64,000 nt of DNA from a phage, in assembly GCA_036436775.1 (NCBI GenBank), contig GCA_036436775.1_3676.1. The stretch is one strand, 5' to 3'. Of the stretch, positions 2,330 to 20,510 are shown piece by piece; within the stretch, counting starts at the first letter, position 1, and every line of letters starts with the position of its first letter. The notes under the pieces were generated by a model. That model saw only the letters and a list, made by a program, of their open reading frames with translations. It made no database searches and was not told the origin of the DNA. The position numbers and the translations under genes are program-made.

Positions 2330-2412
2330 GATTTTTTATCCTCTTTACTAGTTAGTGTGGTGTTGTTCACCTTGTAGGATAAGAATAGCAGGACTCCCCC
2401 GGTTGTCAACAA

Positions 2413-2590
2413 TTATTTTAAATTATTTTTATGATAGAATCCACCTGCCGCCGCCCCTACCAGGTTAACCATCATTTTTTCGTACTCTTCTTTATGTTCC
2501 AACGCTCCCGCCATAGCCTTTTCAACCAGGGCGATAGCCTCAGCGTCATTAATAGCTACATTTTCCAGGGGGGATCATATTACCTTTCAT
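2413..2590 (-). pseudogene. candidate small gene interrupted at a C6/G6 homopolymer (frameshift or sequencing indel)
   Basis: ATG at 2590 with RBS AGGAGGT; frame stops after 13 codons, but the +1 frame continues coding-like (LENVAINDAEAIALVEKAMAGALEHKEEYEKMMVNLVGAAAGGFYHKNNLK) from the G6 tract at 2568-2573. Confidence 0.25.
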
Positions 2591-2748
2591 TTTTGTACCT
2601 CCTCTTCAATTGTTACCTATCCTACAGTATAGGCCCACCAGGTTTACAAGCCTTCATTCTCTCCTACCTGGTCAGTTAGGTCCTGCCAGGCTGGCCCACC
2701 AGGTTGCAGCGGTTAGTGCATCAGGTTAGAAAAATTTTTTGAAAAGTG

Positions 2749-2777
2749 TTGACAGCGGCCCCGCCAGGTGGCACAAT
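2749..2777 (+). promoter_or_regulatory. possible plus-strand promoter reading into the noncoding repeat region
   Basis: TTGACA (2749-2754), 17 nt spacer, CACAAT (2772-2777), A/T-rich upstream. Confidence 0.25.
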
Positions 2778-2810
2778 ATACCTATCGAAAGGACGGAAGG
2801 CACCGGTGAC

Positions 2811-3020
2811 GGGGGAGACAACCACCGGGGATGGGCGCTGCATAAAATGAGAACGGTTATCATTATCATTTAAAAGTTTATGCAAAAAATCCTTGCTCTC
2901 TTTGTCCTGTGTGATACTATAATAACAAGCCGGGGCAACAGGGGCCGGGAGACAACCACCGGGCCTGCCCGTTATTCTGCAAACGAGAATGATTATCATT
3001 CAAAATTCTAAATGAGAACT
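2811..3020. repeat. two ~70 bp direct repeats, each carrying a Fur-box-like sequence
   Basis: Units share GAGACAACCACCGGG...GAGAA-G-TTATCATT; GAGAACGGTTATCATTATC (2849-2867) and GAGAATGATTATCATTCAA (2985-3003) match the 19 bp Fur box at 16/19 and 14/19. Confidence 0.4.
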
Positions 3021-3038
3021 CCTCGCATTTAATAAATT

Positions 3039-3056
3039 TAATTAGCATGCTAATTA
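3039..3056. promoter_or_regulatory. 18 bp perfect palindrome, candidate protein-binding site
   Basis: TAATTAGCATGCTAATTA is its own reverse complement; sits in AT-rich noncoding DNA. Confidence 0.3.
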
Positions 3057-3095
3057 CCCTCCGTAACAATTTCCTATAAAACAATACACCATAAA

Positions 3096-3570
3096 ATTTC
3101 CATATAGAAATTTTAAAAATCCATTTCTGAAAACGAAAAATCGATTTCGTCCCAAAAAATTTCAGGCCGAGAGCCGGAACGATTCCCAGAAAATCCGATT
3201 CAGAAAACGAAAAACAGATCGAGTACTGAGAAATTTATCGAGAAAAGTTTTCAGAAAATCAGAGCCCTGAAATGAAAAGTAGATCGAGTACCTGGAAATC
3301 CGCACCGTGACTTCAAGATAGTGGTTAGATTGTTACCATAGAAGGTCAAGGGTAAGTGGAGGAAGTTCTAGTAGAGGGATGTTAGCATGTGCGAGAAATC
3401 TGTAATGGTGGCCTGGAATATGGTGCAAACGATAGGATGGGTGATTCAGCTTGTCGCGCCCACTCTGAAAAAAATCCATTTTAGTTTTCGATCTATTTTC
3501 TGATTTTCTAAGAATTTTAAAATATCTGGCCCGGTGAAATATCAAAAGGAGGAAATCCATTTTAGAAATC
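3096..3570. repeat. AT-rich region of degenerate direct and inverted repeats (iteron-like), candidate origin or regulatory locus
   Basis: AAATCCATTTYWG recurs near 3121, 3469 and 3553; ~55 bp GAAAA-AGATCGAGTAC-GAAAT units near 3180-3290 with inverted relatives near 3480-3530; ORF-track ORFs here look spurious. Confidence 0.35.
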
Positions 3571-3605
3571 CCCCTTACACTTGATATGCCAGGAATTTTC
3601 AAGTA

Positions 3606-3935
3606 TCAGCTGTCTTTGTTTTTAGGTTTGTACATGCGCAGAGGTATGGTCTTTGTAACATTCCATTTCCTCAATCCTTCCCAGCTCCAGTTGTGGGCGT
3701 GGTATCCGGTTATGCATGCACTACTGGAGTGATCGTAAGCATAAGAGAACGCTAAGCGCACTAGGTGAGGCCAGTCCTTCCACGGTTGTGGTCCGTAAGC
3801 TTTTCTCCAACACCGACACAAACTAAATGTCTCAAGAATAGGCAGGATAACAAATCCATACACCGCCACCAGAATAGCCAGCGCAATGATTGTCAGGAAT
3901 ACATACCCTGCAGTTGAAACGATGATCTCCGTCAT
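3606..3935 (-). CDS. putative membrane protein (109 aa)
   Basis: N-terminal hydrophobic segment IVSTAGYVFLTIIALAILVAVYGFVILPIL. Confidence 0.45.
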   Translation of the reverse strand: MTEIIVSTAGYVFLTIIALAILVAVYGFVILPILETFSLCRCWRKAYGPQPWKDWPHLVRLAFSYAYDHSSSACITGYHAHNWSWEGLRKWNVTKTIPLRMYKPKNKDS

Positions 3936-4910: not shown

Positions 4911-4973
4911 AATATATCCCTCTCTGCTAGTTTATGTTTGTATTATACACCGCAGTTTTCAGATGTCAACCTC

Positions 4974-11906: not shown

Positions 11907-12242
11907 CAATAGTTCAGGTAGGTCGTTAAGCTACCCCGCACCATTACGTGCATAGCCATACGTTTTCACGTAGGATCGGACCATCTCATATTCCTATGAT
12001 AAGCAACCACAGGAATCCTCCCATTTCGACCGCACTTGCTGGTCTACTTCCTTTCGGAATGGCCTCTGAGCGTTCGCTCTTTTGAGCGCTTCGTTGCGGA
12101 TTACCTTGCCATAAGGTTTAGGCTTCCCGCAGTTAAAGAGGTTATTCGACATAGATTACTCTATGAAGCCACAATGTTATTTATGGTAATAAATAATACG
12201 GCGAACACCTTCATCGTACCACCCACGCTTCACCATTTGGTG
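11907..12242 (-). mobile_element. group I intron (ORF-less, ~336 nt) in the DNA polymerase gene
   Basis: Minus strand carries core elements in order: P AACTGCGGGAAGCC (12121-12134), Q AATCCGCAAC (12093-12102), R-like GTAGACCAGC (12038-12047), S GAGATGGTCCGATCC (11974-11988); stop codons in all frames; ends in G. Confidence 0.6.
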
Positions 12243-14606
12243 GTGCATGAGTATCCCAACTAAGTCACACAGCGATGCACCACCATTCTGTTGGTATGCA
12301 TTAAGTAAAGAGTGTTTAGATCGGGTCCAGATAGCATGACCATCAAAAGAGTAGATAAACTTCTTACCAGTTGCTTCCCAGAATTTCTCCAGATCCTCTT
12401 TGCGCCCCTTAAGACCGGGGTTGGCATCCCAAAGCGCATCGATTACCCTTTGTCCCAACTCTGGAGAGATGTCCAGCATATCTGCAACTTTATCTTTTTG
12501 TGCCCCGTACATAACCCCATACGTGATAGGTTTACCGTCGTTACGGGACACCTCTCTACCTGCTACTTTCGTATATGCCTCAGCATTGTTTTGGTGTGCA
12601 TCTCCGTTACTTACAACATCGTAATACAGGCCGTTGTCGAACTCAAAGGCACCCCAAGCCCCGATAAGCTGCTCTAAGTTGGACCCGTCAATACCGATCT
12701 CAAAGTATCCTGGAGGAACACCCCACAAGCTACGCATCTCTTTACCCATAACCACTTTAGGAGATGGTTTAGGCATGTTTGCACAAATACTGTGTTTCTG
12801 TCTGGAAGTGTTTGTCAGCCCAGAACTTTTAGCAGGAAGCTTATGGTCAATCTTCAAACGTGGGTGATTAAGAAGACCAGTATCAACCTTATCCTCCTTG
12901 ATTGGATCAAGGACCGATCTGCGGTTTCGCAATGATAACCACAAGACGATATCTTTAGCCATCTCTCCGTTCAATTTTTCAAGATTCGGACACAGGTGTC
13001 CAAACGTATCTTTCAGTTGCGGAGAAGTAATAAGTGCTCTGGCTTTTCTACGTATTTTCCCGAATACTTCCTTTTTAATCCTTTCAGAGTTAGGAAAGCT
13101 TCGGAACTTGTGCACAGTTGTCTGGAACTTGGCATCAGTTTTGTTCCAGAAGTTGATAATCAGGTCACAATACTCTGACTCTAAAAGCTCGTCCATATAT
13201 GCATATACTCGTGCATCAACATCCGCATCAGGTAGAGCTTTCTTCTTGCTATCTTTAGTTACATCTTTAGTTCTCCACATTGTCGGTAGCCAGCCAGCAC
13301 TGATCAGATACCGCTTAATGTCGTCCTGATTGCTGATTTTCATAGGTATCTTGCAGTCCGGCATTCGCTTCTGCTGTAGATCACTTATTGCCTGATCCAT
13401 CAGCTCTTTAGGCAAAGGGTGGGGTGTGGAAGTGCCCTTAATATAGCCTCTCAAGAAATCAGCCATCTTATCGGGGTCTTTGCAGCCCATCTCTTCACAC
13501 CATTTTATCCCTATCTTGCTGACATCCCCTGTAGAGGTAAATGCTCGCTTAGGCGGGGCTTTGAACTCTAAAGCGCTCATGTCTACAGGATAGCCAAGCT
13601 TATCTTTTAACCATTTCCAACCATTATTAGAGATTGTCCCGTCTTGGTTAAACGGCTTTTCAGGGAACTTGGGCCGCTGAGACATTGACAGCTCTTTTAA
13701 AGGCAGCTGTGGTTCAACACGATCAGCGATTTCTTTCATCCACGCATCGCAACGGTCACGTAAAGCAATAGCTCCATCTATGTCGAAGTATACACCCTGA
13801 CGGGCCTGCAGCTCCATCAGGAAGTGCTGCAGCATGCCTCGACGTAGTGCGTTCTTCCAGGTGATCTTCTTGAACCCTTTCGGCTTCTCTTTGGCTGGAT
13901 CGTACATAAAGTTCTGCATGTCAGATTTGCCGTAGAATACACCTTTTGATTCCGCTACCAGCTCTTTCCAGAGCAGCTCCTGGATGATAACGTCCTCGAA
14001 TACACGATCCACATACTTCCACAACGGAAGATCGCGCCAGTCATCAATTTGAACTTTCTGGTTACCAAGGGCGTAGCCCCATGCCATAAGGCCGTGAGGA
14101 CCAACGGGCTGCATTTTCTTAGTAACCGGGTTGAATACAGAATCCGGACAACCTTTTGGTAAAGGGCGATCAGGCCACAAGATTCGGCTCATCGCCAACG
14201 TATCAAACAGATTAACCTGGTGGTCGTTGATAGTCCCCATACACTTAGGGTCACGGAACATATCAAAATGAATACCGGATAATCTTTCCATCAGCATAAA
14301 GTCATAACTGTAGCAGTTATGGCAGTTCAAAGCTGTTGGTGACCAGTCAGAATTTCCTGTAAGCCAACCTTCCAACTCCGAAAAATCTGCTATGCGAACT
14401 TCAAAATCTTTATAAAGAGTTTTCTTTGCCAGAATAAAGTTCTTAGCCTTCTCTATATCCTCTTCAGAGTAGTGTGTGCGGTCATTTAGAGGAAGGAACA
14501 GCATAAAACGGTTCTTATTCAGCTCTTTAAACAAGCCGCAGTGATAATAAAGATCTAGGTCTTCTAGTAAACCAGAGGCCTCAAGGTCGAAAGACCACAT
14601 ACTCAT
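12243..14606 (-). CDS. DNA polymerase (family A, T7/Pol I-like, with 3'-5' exonuclease), exon 1
   Basis: Exo I FDLEASG near the N-terminus; motif B RNDGKPITYGVMYGAQ; ends ...LVGILMH just before the intron (ORF track reads 22 codons into the intron). Confidence 0.8.
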
Positions 14607-14664: not shown

Positions 14665-16743
14665 TTAAAAAGGTGTTTCATCGTCTTCAAAACCTGGAAC
14701 AGGGTCAGAGGACGGATCATCATACGGAAGGTCTTCCTGTGTGTCAACAGGGTTAACAGTAGGAGTTACAACCTTATCAGCCACAACCCTACCTACAGGT
14801 GTTTCTACAACTGCGTGCTCTTGATCCTCGAACATAGCTTGAGGTCTCCAAACAACCTCCCCACCTTCGCCGTCTGTGAACATCTGCATTTCTTTGTCCC
14901 AGTACCAGTTGCTGGCATCGTGGAACTTACCTGTGTGGGGATCCATAACTAAGGTATCCGCAATGCCTAACGTTTTTGCTGGGCGGTTTTTAAGACCTAC
15001 CAGTCGGACACGTCCACGGGAACGATCCACCATCTCTTCTGCCTCCACCCCAACAACTACCCAGCTAAGTTGCTCCAATCCGGCACTACCCCGAAGGTTC
15101 TCTTTTCGTACAGGATACCAGAAAGGTAACGGATTCCCATCCTTGTCCTTTGGAGGCACAATCTCTGTGCGTTTCAGGTGAGCGATCACCAAGATAAATA
15201 CATTAAACTGCTTACAGAACGCGGCTAGTTGCGTCATAGCCATGTCAAGTTCTTTGCGCTCATCCTTAACATTAAGCCCTGAAATTACCATGGACAGGTG
15301 ATCCAGCACAATGTAACGGCAGTGATACAGACACACCATTTGTTTAAGCTTAGTGATCAACTCATCTACAGGAATAGACCCAAAATGCTTGAACACTTTG
15401 ATTTTTCCCGCCTTGGCCCAAGATTGGTGAATCTCGGCATGCTCCTGATCAGTCAGGAACTGACTAGGGTCTTCAACAAACTCTTTAACATCAAACCCCA
15501 ACTGGTTGGCGTATAGAGAGTTAATTGCTTCCTCAGGGTCCTCTTCAAGGTGAATCAGACACAGGCGATCATCCTCTTCATAATCATCGGCTTTAGGGCA
15601 TGTCGGATCCATCAAGTATTTTGCAATGCAATGTTCTAGTTTCTTGGCTACAGTTGTTTTACCACCGCCAGATGGGCCTGTCAGCATCATCAAGGTGCCT
15701 TTGTGGAGTCCTTTCAGCATCTTCTGCAATTTAGGGAACTCCGCGCTGATATCTACGCCATTAGAAGTCTTCTTACGAAGAGATTCAATGGAGAAGTCTT
15801 CTAAATCAGATACAGCATCGGGCACATATTTGACTGGGTGACGGAACATGTTGACAATATCTTCCAGCTTTTTAGCCTTCAGCATGTCACGGATATCTTT
15901 TACACCGTCAGGGTCGTTTACCTCACTGGGGTATTCCACGTGGTAAACGTTATCAGCCATCAAAAATGCCGCGATATTATGTGTGGCTTCAACACCTTTG
16001 ATAACGTGTTTTTGCTTCTCTACCTCGTTAGCTGCATCGTTGTCCATTGCAAGGACCACTGTTCCGTAGCTACGGATAAATTTCTCATTGTTTGCAAAAG
16101 TATCTACTGCGTTTGCACATCCACAGTTAATTCCAACAAAAGGTAGACAGGGTTTTCCTGCCAGATCACCTCCGTTGATAACTGCATCGATCCCGTCCTG
16201 GACCTCTTTAGCCCACTGCTTAACCTTTGCTGGGGCCTTGGCATTAGTGAGAATCCCTTTTACTTGTATCTGATATGCAGCCTGCCACGCTGCAATAACA
16301 TCACCTTCCCCCTCACAAACGTTAATTTGCTTACGGTTGTTGGAAGATGCACACAGCTTTTGACCAAACATCTGGGAGTTAGCCTTCACGATCCCAACCG
16401 TCGTAAAGTGCCCACGTTGCTCTTTAGGAATCGTCCAGTCACGCTTTTTGAAACCGGATAGATTTCCGTAGCGGTCGTAATATGGGAAATATGTTGCAGT
16501 GACTGTCACACCGTCTTCTTGGGACAATGCTGATCGCACACCAAAATATTGTGCAGCCATCAGACCGATGTTTTGTTGCGGGACAGGGACAATTTTAGTA
16601 TTTTCTAAAACAGTCTCTACAGTTTCAACTTCTTTTTCATCACGATAGTCTCGTTTCACACTTCCCCCACTTTTATACTTAGTTGCTTTCGGGTTTGGCT
16701 CACCGAAACGGTTGTATGCAGATGCCATAAATTTACTTCCCAT
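14665..16743 (-). CDS. primase-helicase (Toprim primase + DnaB-like SF4 helicase, T7 gp4-like)
   Basis: Toprim motifs VCEGEGD and VLAMDNDAANE; Walker A MLTGPSGGGKTT; acidic C-terminus ending FEDDETPF. Confidence 0.8.
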   Translation of the reverse strand: MGSKFMASAYNRFGEPNPKATKYKSGGSVKRDYRDEKEVETVETVLENTKIVPVPQQNIGLMAAQYFGVRSALSQEDGVTVTATYFPYYDRYGNLSGFKKRDWTIPKEQRGHFTTVGIVKANSQMFGQKLCASSNNRKQINVCEGEGDVIAAWQAAYQIQVKGILTNAKAPAKVKQWAKEVQDGIDAVINGGDLAGKPCLPFVGINCGCANAVDTFANNEKFIRSYGTVVLAMDNDAANEVEKQKHVIKGVEATHNIAAFLMADNVYHVEYPSEVNDPDGVKDIRDMLKAKKLEDIVNMFRHPVKYVPDAVSDLEDFSIESLRKKTSNGVDISAEFPKLQKMLKGLHKGTLMMLTGPSGGGKTTVAKKLEHCIAKYLMDPTCPKADDYEEDDRLCLIHLEEDPEEAINSLYANQLGFDVKEFVEDPSQFLTDQEHAEIHQSWAKAGKIKVFKHFGSIPVDELITKLKQMVCLYHCRYIVLDHLSMVISGLNVKDERKELDMAMTQLAAFCKQFNVFILVIAHLKRTEIVPPKDKDGNPLPFWYPVRKENLRGSAGLEQLSWVVVGVEAEEMVDRSRGRVRLVGLKNRPAKTLGIADTLVMDPHTGKFHDASNWYWDKEMQMFTDGEGGEVVWRPQAMFEDQEHAVVETPVGRVVADKVVTPTVNPVDTQEDLPYDDPSSDPVPGFEDDETPF

Positions 16744-18801: not shown

Positions 18802-19143
18802 CTACTGAAGGTCTTCAGAGTCAAGCTCAAAAAGAATCAAACTGTGCATGCTTGCAGAGAGATCAACGCACCCTGCAATAATAAGGGTCTGATAGTAAGG
18901 TTCAGCACCCTCAATGTCTTCGTTAAAATCTACAACAAGATAGTCACCTTTGTTAAAGGTGTATTTGTCCGATGTAAACGCAAAACCTGCCCAGTCCCCT
19001 ACTGCAGGATCTTTATCAGTCACCTTTGTTAGCAGTAGGTCTTTTTCACGAGATCTTTTAGTAAAATCGTGAATCACAACATCCTTCTCTTCAGGAGTTG
19101 GACTACCACACACGTAGTTAACTATATTTCTCCACAAACTCAT
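18802..19143 (-). CDS. hypothetical protein (113 aa)
   Basis: ORF in array. Confidence 0.5.
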   Translation of the reverse strand: MSLWRNIVNYVCGSPTPEEKDVVIHDFTKRSREKDLLLTKVTDKDPAVGDWAGFAFTSDKYTFNKGDYLVVDFNEDIEGAEPYYQTLIIAGCVDLSASMHSLILFELDSEDLQ

Positions 19144-20510
19144 ACGTCCCCCTCTTCTGCTCTGGTTTCAAAATCTTTCCTGACAATTTTGTCTAAGTCA
19201 GGGAATGTTGTATTGTAAAACTCTACGACTCGCGGGTCAACAATAATATCAACTTCTCTTAGTGGACGCAACAAGTTTATCCCTTGTATTGTCTTAACTC
19301 GACTCAAAGCAACATACGTCATCCCAGGAGAGAAAGCTCCGTTCTTTCCAAGGTCTAGGTTGTAACAATCTAGCGTAAGTCCTTGACTTTTATGAGATGT
19401 TACGGCGTACCCAGATTTTAGAGGAAGTTGCTTGTATGACCCAATCACCACCCTCTCTATAAACTTCTCCATCTTCCTTTCTGCAATGTTGTATCTTTGA
19501 GATGGCTTATACTCGTTATTCTCCCACAACCTTTGCTCTATGTCAACCTGTGTTCCATCTTCAAGCTCCACCACCACCGCCTTGTTCTTAAATTTAACAA
19601 TTGTGGCACGTGTTCCGTTAACATAATAAGGTACTTTGTGCGTCGGGTCAACATCGTTGGCGGTTATCATAACCTTCATGCCAATTTTCAACTTCATCTC
19701 CTGCTCAACTGGCAGGGTGGAGGGAAACTTACCTTTCATTTCACCAGTGTATACCTTTTCTGGGGCGTTGATGGCATCATAGAACCTTCTGTTCACTTCC
19801 TCCGCTTGTTTGTTGGTGGCGCAAATTGTGAGAGCGTCTGTTGGTACACCGCCTTTGTAACAACGAGCATTAAGTTCTGCTACAACCTCTTTTATGCGAC
19901 GACCCTCACGAACACAGTTGAGCATTGTGGCAAATCGAATAGACTCCTGTCGGAACTGATCTACTAGGGCTATGTTGTGGAGGTCAAGCTCTTTCCAAGA
20001 TTCGGTATAGCAACACAGGTCCGTATGGTAGAAGTTGAAGTAGGCTTCCTTCTCCATAGAAGAGACAACAGGAGGTGCTTGGTAAAAATCGCCAAACAAT
20101 ATGACCTGTATGCCTCCGAAAGGTTTGTCATTTTTTCGAAGGAAGCGGAGTTTCCTATCCATCTCTATAAACTTATCAGCACGAATCATAGAGATTTCAT
20201 CGATAATTAGGATGGTAAATGCCTTGCTTTTCAAAGGCTTTGCTGTTTTTGCCCTTATTGCAGTCCAGTCTGACTCCATGCTCACACCTGCTGCAAGATC
20301 GAATGTTCGGTGTGCTGTTGCTCCATTAACGTTTAATGCGGCTACCCCTGTCGGGGCAACCGTTATGCAAGAGTCTCCATACATGGACTGGATCATGTTG
20401 ATGAGATACGTCTTCCCACAACCTGCGGGTCCTGAAACGAAGACATTCTCACCGCTCATGATTGCAATGAGGGCAGCATCTGTGCCTACGTCATACTGCC
20501 CTTTTTCCAT
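19140..20510 (-). CDS. SF1 DNA helicase, Dda/RecD/Pif1-like
   Basis: Walker A VSGPAGCGKTYL, Walker B LIIDEISM, C-terminal AVTSHKSQGLTLD. Confidence 0.75.
   Translation of the reverse strand: MEKGQYDVGTDAALIAIMSGENVFVSGPAGCGKTYLINMIQSMYGDSCITVAPTGVAALNVNGATAHRTFDLAAGVSMESDWTAIRAKTAKPLKSKAFTILIIDEISMIRADKFIEMDRKLRFLRKNDKPFGGIQVILFGDFYQAPPVVSSMEKEAYFNFYHTDLCCYTESWKELDLHNIALVDQFRQESIRFATMLNCVREGRRIKEVVAELNARCYKGGVPTDALTICATNKQAEEVNRRFYDAINAPEKVYTGEMKGKFPSTLPVEQEMKLKIGMKVMITANDVDPTHKVPYYVNGTRATIVKFKNKAVVVELEDGTQVDIEQRLWENNEYKPSQRYNIAERKMEKFIERVVIGSYKQLPLKSGYAVTSHKSQGLTLDCYNLDLGKNGAFSPGMTYVALSRVKTIQGINLLRPLREVDIIVDPRVVEFYNTTFPDLDKIVRKDFETRAEEGDV

Follow-up and report, generated by a model that had tools for sequence, protein, structure and literature searches.

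In bacteria, operators of the iron regulator Fur, e.g., the aerobactin iucA operator that serves as a reference here, conform to a 19-bp consensus (GATAATGATAATCATTATC) or to a 7-1-7 inverted repeat (TGATAATnATTATCA). Among replication origins, the primary origin of T7 is composed of tandem promoters followed by an AT-rich segment, oriF and oriG of T4, which are R-loop primed, each pair a promoter with a downstream unwinding element, and a G-rich RNA-DNA hybrid serves in the case of ColE1. Here, we analyze positions 2590–3605 of a 64-kb stretch of phage DNA (the window), which belongs to a Vequintavirus, i.e., an rV5-like myophage. This locus is confirmed to be a conserved, non-coding, multi-part control element. 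The presence of an array of Fur-type operators, judged from sequence comparisons, is well supported, and so is the presence of early promoters that face against the flanking genes. As to its role, the reading that we favor, at somewhat short of an even chance, is an origin of replication that is activated by transcription and gated or shaped by host Fur.

Fur-Type Operators in the Non-Coding Region

Two Fur-like boxes had been noticed in the first-pass annotation of this DNA, and both hold up. Box 1 (2847–2867, ATGAGAACGGTTATCAT) overlaps a 16/19 match to the 19-bp consensus on the minus strand (2849–2867), for which 0.04 occurrences per 64 kb are expected. Box 2 (2983–2999, ACGAGAATGATTATCAT) matches 14 of 19 positions of the 19-mer in a hand alignment and 12 of 14 positions of the 7-1-7 form (2984–2998); known Fur sites have about 11 or more matches of 19. 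A degenerate box 3 (3012–3028, ATGAGAACTCCTCGCAT) follows box 2 by 29 bp, the typical spacing in this family. Three of the four matches to ATGAGAANNNTTCTCAT in the window, with at most two mismatches allowed, fall at 2847, 2983, and 3012. As a background, we used 1000 dinucleotide-preserving shuffles of the AT-rich 1 kb itself. The region contains five sites with at most five mismatches to the 19-mer, versus a mean of 0.05 in the shuffled sequences, and since none of the 1000 shuffles reached five, the AT-rich composition does not account for these matches.

The box is a 7-1-7 inverted repeat of the Fur-family type with the half-site TGAGAAT or TGATAAT. The consensus of 52 boxes across phages is AAATGAGAATGATTCTCATTC, with the core TGAGAAT-g-ATTCTCA, and the distance between neighboring boxes is exactly 29 bp in 23 of 35 pairs. 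Boxes of related phages reach 13–14 matches of 14 to the 7-1-7 form, e.g., the perfect ATGATAATGATTATCAT in phage 4MG. Position 4 of the left half-site is G rather than the T of the Fur consensus in 44 of the 52 boxes, and the mirror position is C in 27 and A in 23. A scan with the promoter consensus (either strand, 16–18-nt spacer) and manual inspection revealed no promoter overlapping the boxes; a pseudo-promoter with a 15-nt spacer, formed by adjacent boxes, was rejected. Given the left-arm preference for G and the non-classical placement, a protein other than Fur with similar specificity may be the actual binder.

Compared with bacterial Fur operators, the phage boxes have the same half-site, the same geometry, and similar flanking A/T bases. 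They differ in that they occur in a virulent phage, in arrays with 29-bp spacing and downstream of promoters, with Fur as their predicted ligand; the preference for G over T in the left arm only is a further difference.

The Same Palindrome in Bacteria and Other Phages

The exact consensus AATGAGAATNATTCTCATT, searched in one genome per species, was found at no fewer than 120 loci in very diverse bacteria. We examined 20 proteins flanking these loci, 11 of which had a Pfam assignment. At least five of the 11 belong to iron or Fur families (FUR, TonB-receptor Plug, Iron_transport (Fe2+), siderophore-type Peripla_BP_2, and an ECF sigma factor), and an ABC ATPase is a possible sixth. Because the identical bacterial sequence flanks hallmark genes of the Fur regulon, we interpret the palindrome as a Fur-type operator. 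An earlier proposal of a Fur-responsive control region thus stands with respect to the candidate operators, which are backed by the shuffles, the relatives, and the iron-related bacterial neighbors; the boxes do not, however, overlap a promoter in the classical manner.

In a parallel scan of viral sequences, the exact 18-mer ATGAGAATGATTATCATT was found in more than 120 IMG/VR contigs, which differ widely in base composition. Among the matches listed, groups of at least three boxes within 250 bp were observed in 22 of 120 viral contigs versus two of 120 bacterial loci, and therefore arrays of Fur-type boxes seem to be typical of phages in general and not of bacteria. Control viral loci had such groups in four of 117 cases, each of which would fit a relative of the element described here. 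Arrays of three to six palindromes of the form ATGA(G/T)AAT-N-ATT(C/A)TCAT occur in unrelated viral contigs with 21–52% G+C (IMG/VR loci L011, L036, L043, L050, L051, L115, and L129; also L025/L130, L085, and L089). One of these unrelated arrays adjoins a (GAGAAT)n microsatellite.

We found no paper describing arrays of Fur-type boxes in phages. It is possible, albeit doubtful, that arrays of three to six tandem palindromes in gene-free DNA represent a widespread, hitherto unrecognized module with which tailed phages of many hosts capture the iron regulator of the host. If so, the array could be an iron sensor licensing replication or packaging. Alternatively, it could act as a sponge, the multiplying phage genomes stripping Fur from the host chromosome and thereby turning on iron uptake and Fur-repressed functions required for DNA synthesis. 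The rV5-like region would then be the first conserved, experimentally tractable case in a virulent coliphage.

Conservation and Common Layout

Conservation was measured as mean pairwise identity in nine aligned Vequintavirus genomes. Parts of the region are more conserved than the flanking genes: identity amounts to 0.99 at 2750–2849, 0.93–0.97 at 2850–3049, and 0.98–0.99 at 3100–3149 and 3200–3249, versus 0.84–0.92 in the flanking genes. The left border (2600–2699, about 0.70) and the center (3300–3449, 0.67–0.76) are more variable. A sensitive blastn search in other genera recognizes only about 2884–3041, chiefly 2945–3036. The matches belong to phages of Klebsiella, Enterobacter, Serratia, Pectobacterium, Cronobacter, Salmonella, and Erwinia and to phi92- and phAPEC8-like coliphages, and most of them have no annotated feature beneath. 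The element, which is small and has sharp limits, is also present in phages of the BASEL collection.

To the Vequintavirus genomes we added the homologous loci of 13 further phages and several metagenomic contigs. Despite sequence divergence, one layout is common to the Vequintavirinae genera Mydovirus, Seunavirus, Certrevirus, and Henunavirus and to the sampled Stephanstirmvirinae. It occupies a gene-poor segment of 1–1.3 kb amid early genes of the minus strand. The layout starts with a sigma-70 early promoter directed against the surrounding genes, with conserved hexamers and a variable spacer, followed by a leader of about 60 nt that contains ACAT(A/G)GCG, GAGACAAnCACC, and CCTGCCCG(Y)(Y)ATTCTGCAA. 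Immediately after the leader come one to five palindromes AAATGAGAAT-N-ATTCTCATT, mostly 29 bp apart, and then an AT-rich segment. The next part usually comprises three long iteron-like units of about 65–75 bp, each ending in (T/A)CGATCGAG(A/T)AC; three GATCGAG-containing units recur in eight of the 12 other phages scanned. The units are followed by a segment of variable sequence with a G-rich plus strand (GC skew from +0.35 to +0.58 in eight of 13 phages), and the layout is closed by an inverted unit with two to five copies of AAATATC.

The distant genera alone have further parts ahead of this layout, namely a plus-strand promoter, a small open reading frame (ORF) of the plus strand, a second promoter, and a conserved GC-rich element, which we call RNA-1; in the Vequintavirus window, a second copy of the leader is found in place of the upstream ORF and RNA-1. 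The small ORF (loci L007, 2066–2257; L008, 2074–2340; L009, 2082–2291) is assigned to DUF7170/PF23776 in KpS8 and to phrog_19316 in ESCO13. RNA-1 directly precedes the leader in Mydo-, Seuna-, Certre-, Phapecocta-, and Justusliebigviruses (L007, 2320–2420; L008, 2390–2490; also L009, L010, L137–L143, and L145). It consists of CGCCACCCCACGGCGwAAAGGCGGGGCUAAC, a variable hairpin, and GGAAGGUGrAUCGCCGG. The RNAalifold consensus of RNA-1 has an energy of −16.5 kcal/mol and one covarying GC/AU pair, and it has no match in Rfam; it may be an undescribed structured RNA.

Absence of Protein-Coding Genes

In agreement with the initial impression that no credible ORF spans 2600–3600, the segment of about 2590–3605 contains neither a conserved ORF nor a coding signature, and the homologous phages do not encode an ordinary protein at this locus. 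Mechanically, two ORFs can be read on the minus strand, one of 92 codons (2721–2999) and one of 89 codons with a TTG start (3333–3602). Annotators of related genomes disagree: different tiny ORFs are called here, and in some genomes none.

Many database records nevertheless show genes for small proteins in the region, and this alternative is exemplified by the 92-codon ORF, the most frequently annotated one. It is open in eight of nine Vequintavirus genomes and is listed in several records; however, the DNA is nearly invariant here, and hence openness of the frame is uninformative. The variable columns of this ORF are distributed 6/7/11 over the three codon positions, versus 12/9/35 for the genuine gene at 3606–3935. 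Nearly all substitutions change the amino acid, the frame is shifted in one relative, and the start codon lies inside a Fur box. ORFs of the central region vary between genomes and none is conserved. In most other genera examined, the homologous DNA has no annotated ORF, the exceptions being small ORFs in F5M1E and PsgM04F. On the frame and codon-position tests we reject the coding reading, to which we give next to no credence, and dozens of genome records should no longer list hypothetical proteins here.

Non-coding RNA searches of the region were negative as well. Rfam gave nothing at the gathering score (the best E-value was 0.22) and nothing relevant with E-values up to 10, and ARAGORN found no tRNA. 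The only Rfam hit in the window is a group I intron outside the region.

Promoters, Leader Modules, and the Small-RNA Alternative

The first-pass annotation had mentioned possible plus-strand promoters pointing into the region, and such promoters are indeed seen. Promoter P1 (2727–2777, plus strand) starts with an A/T-rich UP-like tract and contains the −35 hexamer TTGACA (2749–2754), a GC-rich 17-nt spacer, and the TG-extended −10 hexamer CACAAT (2772–2777), with a predicted start at about 2784. Its sequence is invariant in nine genomes. P1 shares the design of an UP element plus TTGACA with six minus-strand early promoters nearby and is the only plus-strand member of this cluster. Promoter P2 (2893–2923, plus strand) has the −35 hexamer TTGCTC (2893–2898) and either TACTAT (2915–2920, 16-nt spacer) or TATAAT (2918–2923) as the −10 hexamer. 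As read from the aligned sequences, the hexamers of P2 are conserved across genera and the spacer varies; the consensus promoter scan missed P2. P1 and P2 are likely to drive transcription of the plus strand.

A leader module, whose conserved motif is GAGACAAnCACC, comes after each promoter. Module 2a (2786–2846, plus strand, about 60 nt) holds the 17-mer GGGAGACAACCACCGGG at 2813–2829. Module 2b (2930–2982, plus strand) holds it at 2947–2963 and has CCTGCCCGTTATTCTGCAA directly before the box; it is the only part of the region still detected by blastn in other genera. The modules belong to two direct repeats that had been reported as about 70 bp long. The repeats are real, yet they are not close copies: the segments of about 2796–2872 and 2930–3005 are degenerate repeats of about 80 nt with 53 of 83 aligned positions the same (64%), and only the 17-mer starting at 2813 and 2947 is exact. 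A T7-type primase site in the conserved motif was considered and dropped, as the motif is not conserved in the copies of Mydovirus and Seunavirus.

Such an arrangement might also specify two paralogous small regulatory RNAs of about 60–90 nt that start at P1 and P2 and use GAGACAAnCACC as the seed, the Fur boxes being incidental or regulating. The conserved promoters agree with this. Furthermore, in most phages the leader shows complementarity between its 5′ end and the stretch preceding box 1, with 88.9% of cells paired versus 26–61% when the partner is slid by one to three columns, and the G-U pairs of this helix fit only an RNA of the plus strand. On the other hand, no intrinsic terminator of the plus strand was found, nor any Rfam match, and the RNAalifold consensus of the leader reaches only −1.8 kcal/mol. 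Fold z-scores of the leaders lie between 0.55 and −1.2 in 12 of 15 cases and at about −1.9 to −2.4 in the other three, and those of stretches of the window range from 0.1 to −1.8. By eye, the outer helix of the leader seems to covary; however, 324 and 355 of 500 column shuffles score at least as high, and covariation is therefore undemonstrated. Finally, the conserved 16-mer has no antisense target in the 64-kb window beyond its own two copies. Hence, of the proposed small-RNA locus, the conserved promoters survive, the terminator, Rfam, folding, and covariation data speak against it, and it is weakly supported overall. Discrete structured small RNAs are not supported, and we consider this explanation improbable.

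A Candidate Replication Origin

The boxes are followed by an AT-rich stretch (3020–3130, 24–28% G+C in 100-nt windows), which is a candidate unwinding element. It contains the 18-bp palindrome TAATTAGCATGCTAATTA (3039–3056) of the first-pass annotation. No longer perfect palindrome exists in the 64 kb, and 3 of 1000 shuffles reach 18 bp; in the relatives, the left arm has an A-to-G change in four of eight genomes, and the center has a T-to-C change in a fifth. Three direct iteron-like units occupy 3108–3299 on the plus strand (cores at 3113–3160, 3187–3234, and 3252–3299, spaced by 74 and 65 bp). Their sub-motifs are AGAAAATCC, GAAAACGAAAAA, and AGATCGAGTAC. The variable spacer (3300–3465) has an identity of 0.67–0.76 and no conserved ORF; on the plus strand, G exceeds C, with a GC skew up to +0.58. 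The last unit is inverted (3466–3570, minus strand). It comprises an iteron-like part (3466–3530), AAATATC at 3520–3526 and 3537–3543, and AAATCCATTTTAG at 3472 and 3553. Thus, the degenerate repeats of about 55 bp that had been seen in both orientations were recovered as three direct units and one inverted unit of about 48–65 nt. The thrice-repeated motif AAATCCATTTYWG is likewise present, exactly at 3117, 3472, and 3553, with an expectation of 0.02.

We suggest the following tentative scheme. Host RNA polymerase would transcribe from P1 and P2 into the AT-rich and iteron DNA, where the G-rich transcript could form a stable RNA-DNA hybrid that opens the duplex. The hybrid might then prime a T7-like replisome consisting of the family A polymerase and the DnaB-like primase-helicase, both encoded 9–14 kb away. 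Iron-loaded Fur, bound to the operators downstream of the promoters, could be a roadblock that gates transcription or could aid in building the initiation complex. The start of replication would thereby be tied to the iron state of the host.

Several features argue for an origin. P1 and P2 oppose the surrounding transcription and point into the block of 24–28% G+C and further into direct and inverted iterons, so that conserved promoters are directed into an AT-rich, gene-free segment. At least three spaced repeats lie beside the AT-rich element, as in iteron origins, although the unit length is atypical. The non-template strand downstream is G-rich and is conserved in composition, not in sequence. 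Replication genes are located nearby on the same transcription unit.

Other observations weigh against this interpretation. The cumulative GC skew declines steadily across the locus, with no inflection there, and changes direction solely where gene orientation switches; skew in this phage follows the direction of transcription and is in itself uninformative, and the authors of the rV5 study described the skew changes as linked to transcription only. The region contains one weak DnaA-like 9-mer and no IHF core site, and no initiator domain was recognizable by Pfam or PHROGs in the neighboring proteins. The units of 65–75 bp are far longer than the classical iterons of 17–22 bp. Relative to the predicted transcription starts of the two promoters, the boxes are situated at about +60 to +110, which is unusual for control by Fur. 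A second non-coding region of this phage family also has Fur-like boxes and AAATATC, and therefore neither motif is specific to one origin. Lastly, in at least six of about 14 unrelated viral contigs examined, the array is located 0.3–1.3 kb from a large-terminase gene, often near the contig end. The earlier suggestion of a replication origin is thus plausible and unproven: promoters, AT-rich DNA, iterons, and G-skew are retained across genera, whereas a switch of GC skew, DnaA or IHF sites, and an initiator gene are lacking.

In its general design, the region resembles the T7 primary origin (1.1A/1.1B) and the T4 origins oriF (uvsY) and oriG (34), as tandem promoters with no gene behind them lead into an AT-rich block. 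In addition, the phage has a T7-like replisome, and the downstream non-template strand, being G-rich, would suit R-loop priming; the G-rich hybrid of ColE1 is a further parallel. The differences are host sigma-70 promoters, an intervening array of Fur-type boxes, the long iteron-like units, and no sequence similarity, and for the region at hand the origin role is inferred. With iteron origins (lambda ori, P1 oriR, pSC101, R6K, F) the region shares direct and inverted units by AT-rich DNA and sites for a host protein. It differs from them in the unit length (65–75 versus 17–22 bp) and in having neither DnaA or IHF sites nor a recognizable initiator gene next to it.

A Possible Iron-Responsive Switch or Decoy

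The same promoters and boxes could be an iron-responsive transcription switch or a decoy for Fur, with no role in replication; this we hold to be rather unlikely. As a switch, the antisense transcript from P1 and P2 would collide with the right early operon and set the operon boundary, which a Fur roadblock would make iron-dependent. Transcription is indeed convergent, as a minus-strand promoter at 4969 feeds the genes ending at 3606, and between 4969 and 2409 there is no TTGAC-type promoter of the minus strand and no intrinsic terminator. The distance between the leader motif and box 1 is fixed in all phages, suggesting action in cis on the P2 transcript. As a decoy, operators on hundreds of replicating genomes would soak up Fur and switch on host iron uptake and Fur-repressed functions of benefit to the phage. 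Titration of Fur by operator copies is the principle of the Fur titration assay. Both versions are in line with the Fur-type operators being the best-supported element and with the enrichment of arrays in phage contigs over bacterial loci among the matches listed (see above). However, a pure sponge needs neither phasing, nor a fixed position after the promoter, nor iterons, an AT-rich block, and a G-skewed spacer, all of which are conserved, and a boundary role leaves unexplained about 500 bp of repeats that are more conserved than genes.

A conserved array of Fur operators in strictly virulent phages, if its predicted role is correct, would tie phage development to the availability of iron, which is the chief nutritional stress in the gut and infected tissue. 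Fur would thereby join the short list of host regulators co-opted by phages. The array occurs in two subfamilies and has counterparts in many uncultured phages, and the rV5-like phages themselves are broad-host-range coliphages widely considered for therapy and biocontrol. The literature searched for Fur boxes, replication origins, small RNAs, or genome termini of these phages gave no description of the element. Its ingredients (operators of host regulators, promoter-driven origins, and iterons) are known; their combination and setting we have not found described.

A Possible Packaging Site and Genome Ends

Repeat units around a non-conserved center might, finally, mark a pac-like site of packaging or a genome end, with the cut in the center and Fur aiding assembly, as IHF does at the P1 pac site and at lambda cosB. 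Direct and inverted units do flank a variable center of 165 bp. The terminase-proximal arrays near contig ends in unrelated viruses fit this picture, and so do the records and contigs that end inside the region (MG065682, MG065655, PP357458, PP681140, L038, and L325). However, these ends spread over about 1 kb and may reflect assembly breaks at repeats. In published analyses, Vequintavirus termini are described as circularly permuted or headful, with no site named, and the record of EC152 shows no terminal repeat where it begins and ends. The terminal repeat reported for Mydovirus KPP-1 lies 8 kb away, in a different non-coding region. Moreover, a packaging site leaves the conserved inward-facing promoters unexplained. 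The likeness to P1 pac and lambda cosB consists of repeats around a non-conserved center with host-factor sites nearby, together with similar arrays by the terminase in other phages. Unlike these sites, the region adjoins no identified terminase gene in the window, and published termini place none here. We regard packaging as having only a slim chance of being the function.

Ends of records and contigs in about 2600–3500 and in homologous positions (L302 is a further case) are commoner than uniformly distributed ends would be. Assembly breaks at repeats, heterogeneity of the population (the indel at 2636–2685), or a real DNA end are possible causes.

The terminal repeat reported for KPP-1 is 514 bp long and has twofold coverage. 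Coincidence of this repeat with the region studied here is ruled out by the distance of 8 kb. The second non-coding region of KPP-1 (L386; 115,981–117,100), which includes the 514-bp interval, contains a leader-like module, AAAATATCA repeats, and Fur-like boxes. Its Vequintavirus equivalent is a 2.5-kb gap at a convergent strand switch, about 8 kb past the left edge of the window and about 11 kb from the region. In MaxTheCat (90,051–92,584; L387, 8052–10585), this gap has three Fur-like boxes and AAATATC/GATATTT repeats. The grey "non-coding" box of the rV5 paper is probably this second region and not the one studied here. The motifs shared by both regions suggest that the boxes and AAATATC are reusable protein-binding sites, which keeps packaging alive as a minority reading.

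Genomic Setting and Additional Observations

In a megablast search with 2400–3800, 122 phage records matched with identities of 80–99%, the best being Escherichia phages EdH4, FFH2, and MaxTheCat, all of the genus Vequintavirus. All credible genes within several kilobases on each side of 2590–3605 are on the minus strand, with sigma-70-type promoters and their A/T-rich upstream tracts preceding them, and the region lies between two early operons of that strand. Proteins of the neighboring genes match only PHROGs families of unknown function and have no Pfam matches. The replication genes are on the same (minus) strand, 9–17 kb from the region, and encode a family A DNA polymerase (12177–14606), a DnaB-like primase-helicase (14665–16743), and a PIF1 helicase (19140–20510). 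A group I catalytic intron (Rfam RF00028, 64.7 bits) at 11957–12192 on the minus strand abuts the start of the polymerase ORF, and the polymerase gene is probably split by this intron.

The left border (2590–2745) contains two copies of GGCCCACCAGGTT (2632–2644 and 2693–2705) in DNA rich in CCWGG and CCGG. Read on the minus strand, they are TTG(T/C)AA-ACCTGGTGGGCC, which appears to resemble the −35 hexamer plus spacer of the phage promoters. The segment 2636–2685 is deleted in some relatives. Throughout 2590–3605, CCWGG (Dcm sites) and CCGG occur 7.9 and 6.9 times per kb versus 1.5 per kb window-wide, i.e., about fivefold more often, and gather mainly in the GC-rich spacers of the promoters and in the left border. 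GATC is not enriched (3 per kb in the region versus 4.6 per kb in the window), although the iteron cores do contain it.

To the left, a small gene of 61 codons (2406–2590, minus strand) is annotated in relatives and is frameshifted in the window by one extra G in the run at 2568–2573, which has six G here, five in most relatives, and four in some. Its variable columns are distributed 4/8/9 over the codon positions, with no excess at the third. Possibly this is not a genuine gene; the non-coding region would then reach left to about 2410.

No homology to the region, such as a captured Fur-regulated promoter or small RNA, was found in the E. coli chromosome. The only plasmid match is the 137.5-kb E. 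coli "plasmid" CP057073.1, which is a mislabeled Vequintavirus genome. Similarly, at least 17 GenBank records titled "Campylobacter phage" (MG0656xx) are unannotated Vequintavirus genomes, 92–94% identical to this coliphage.

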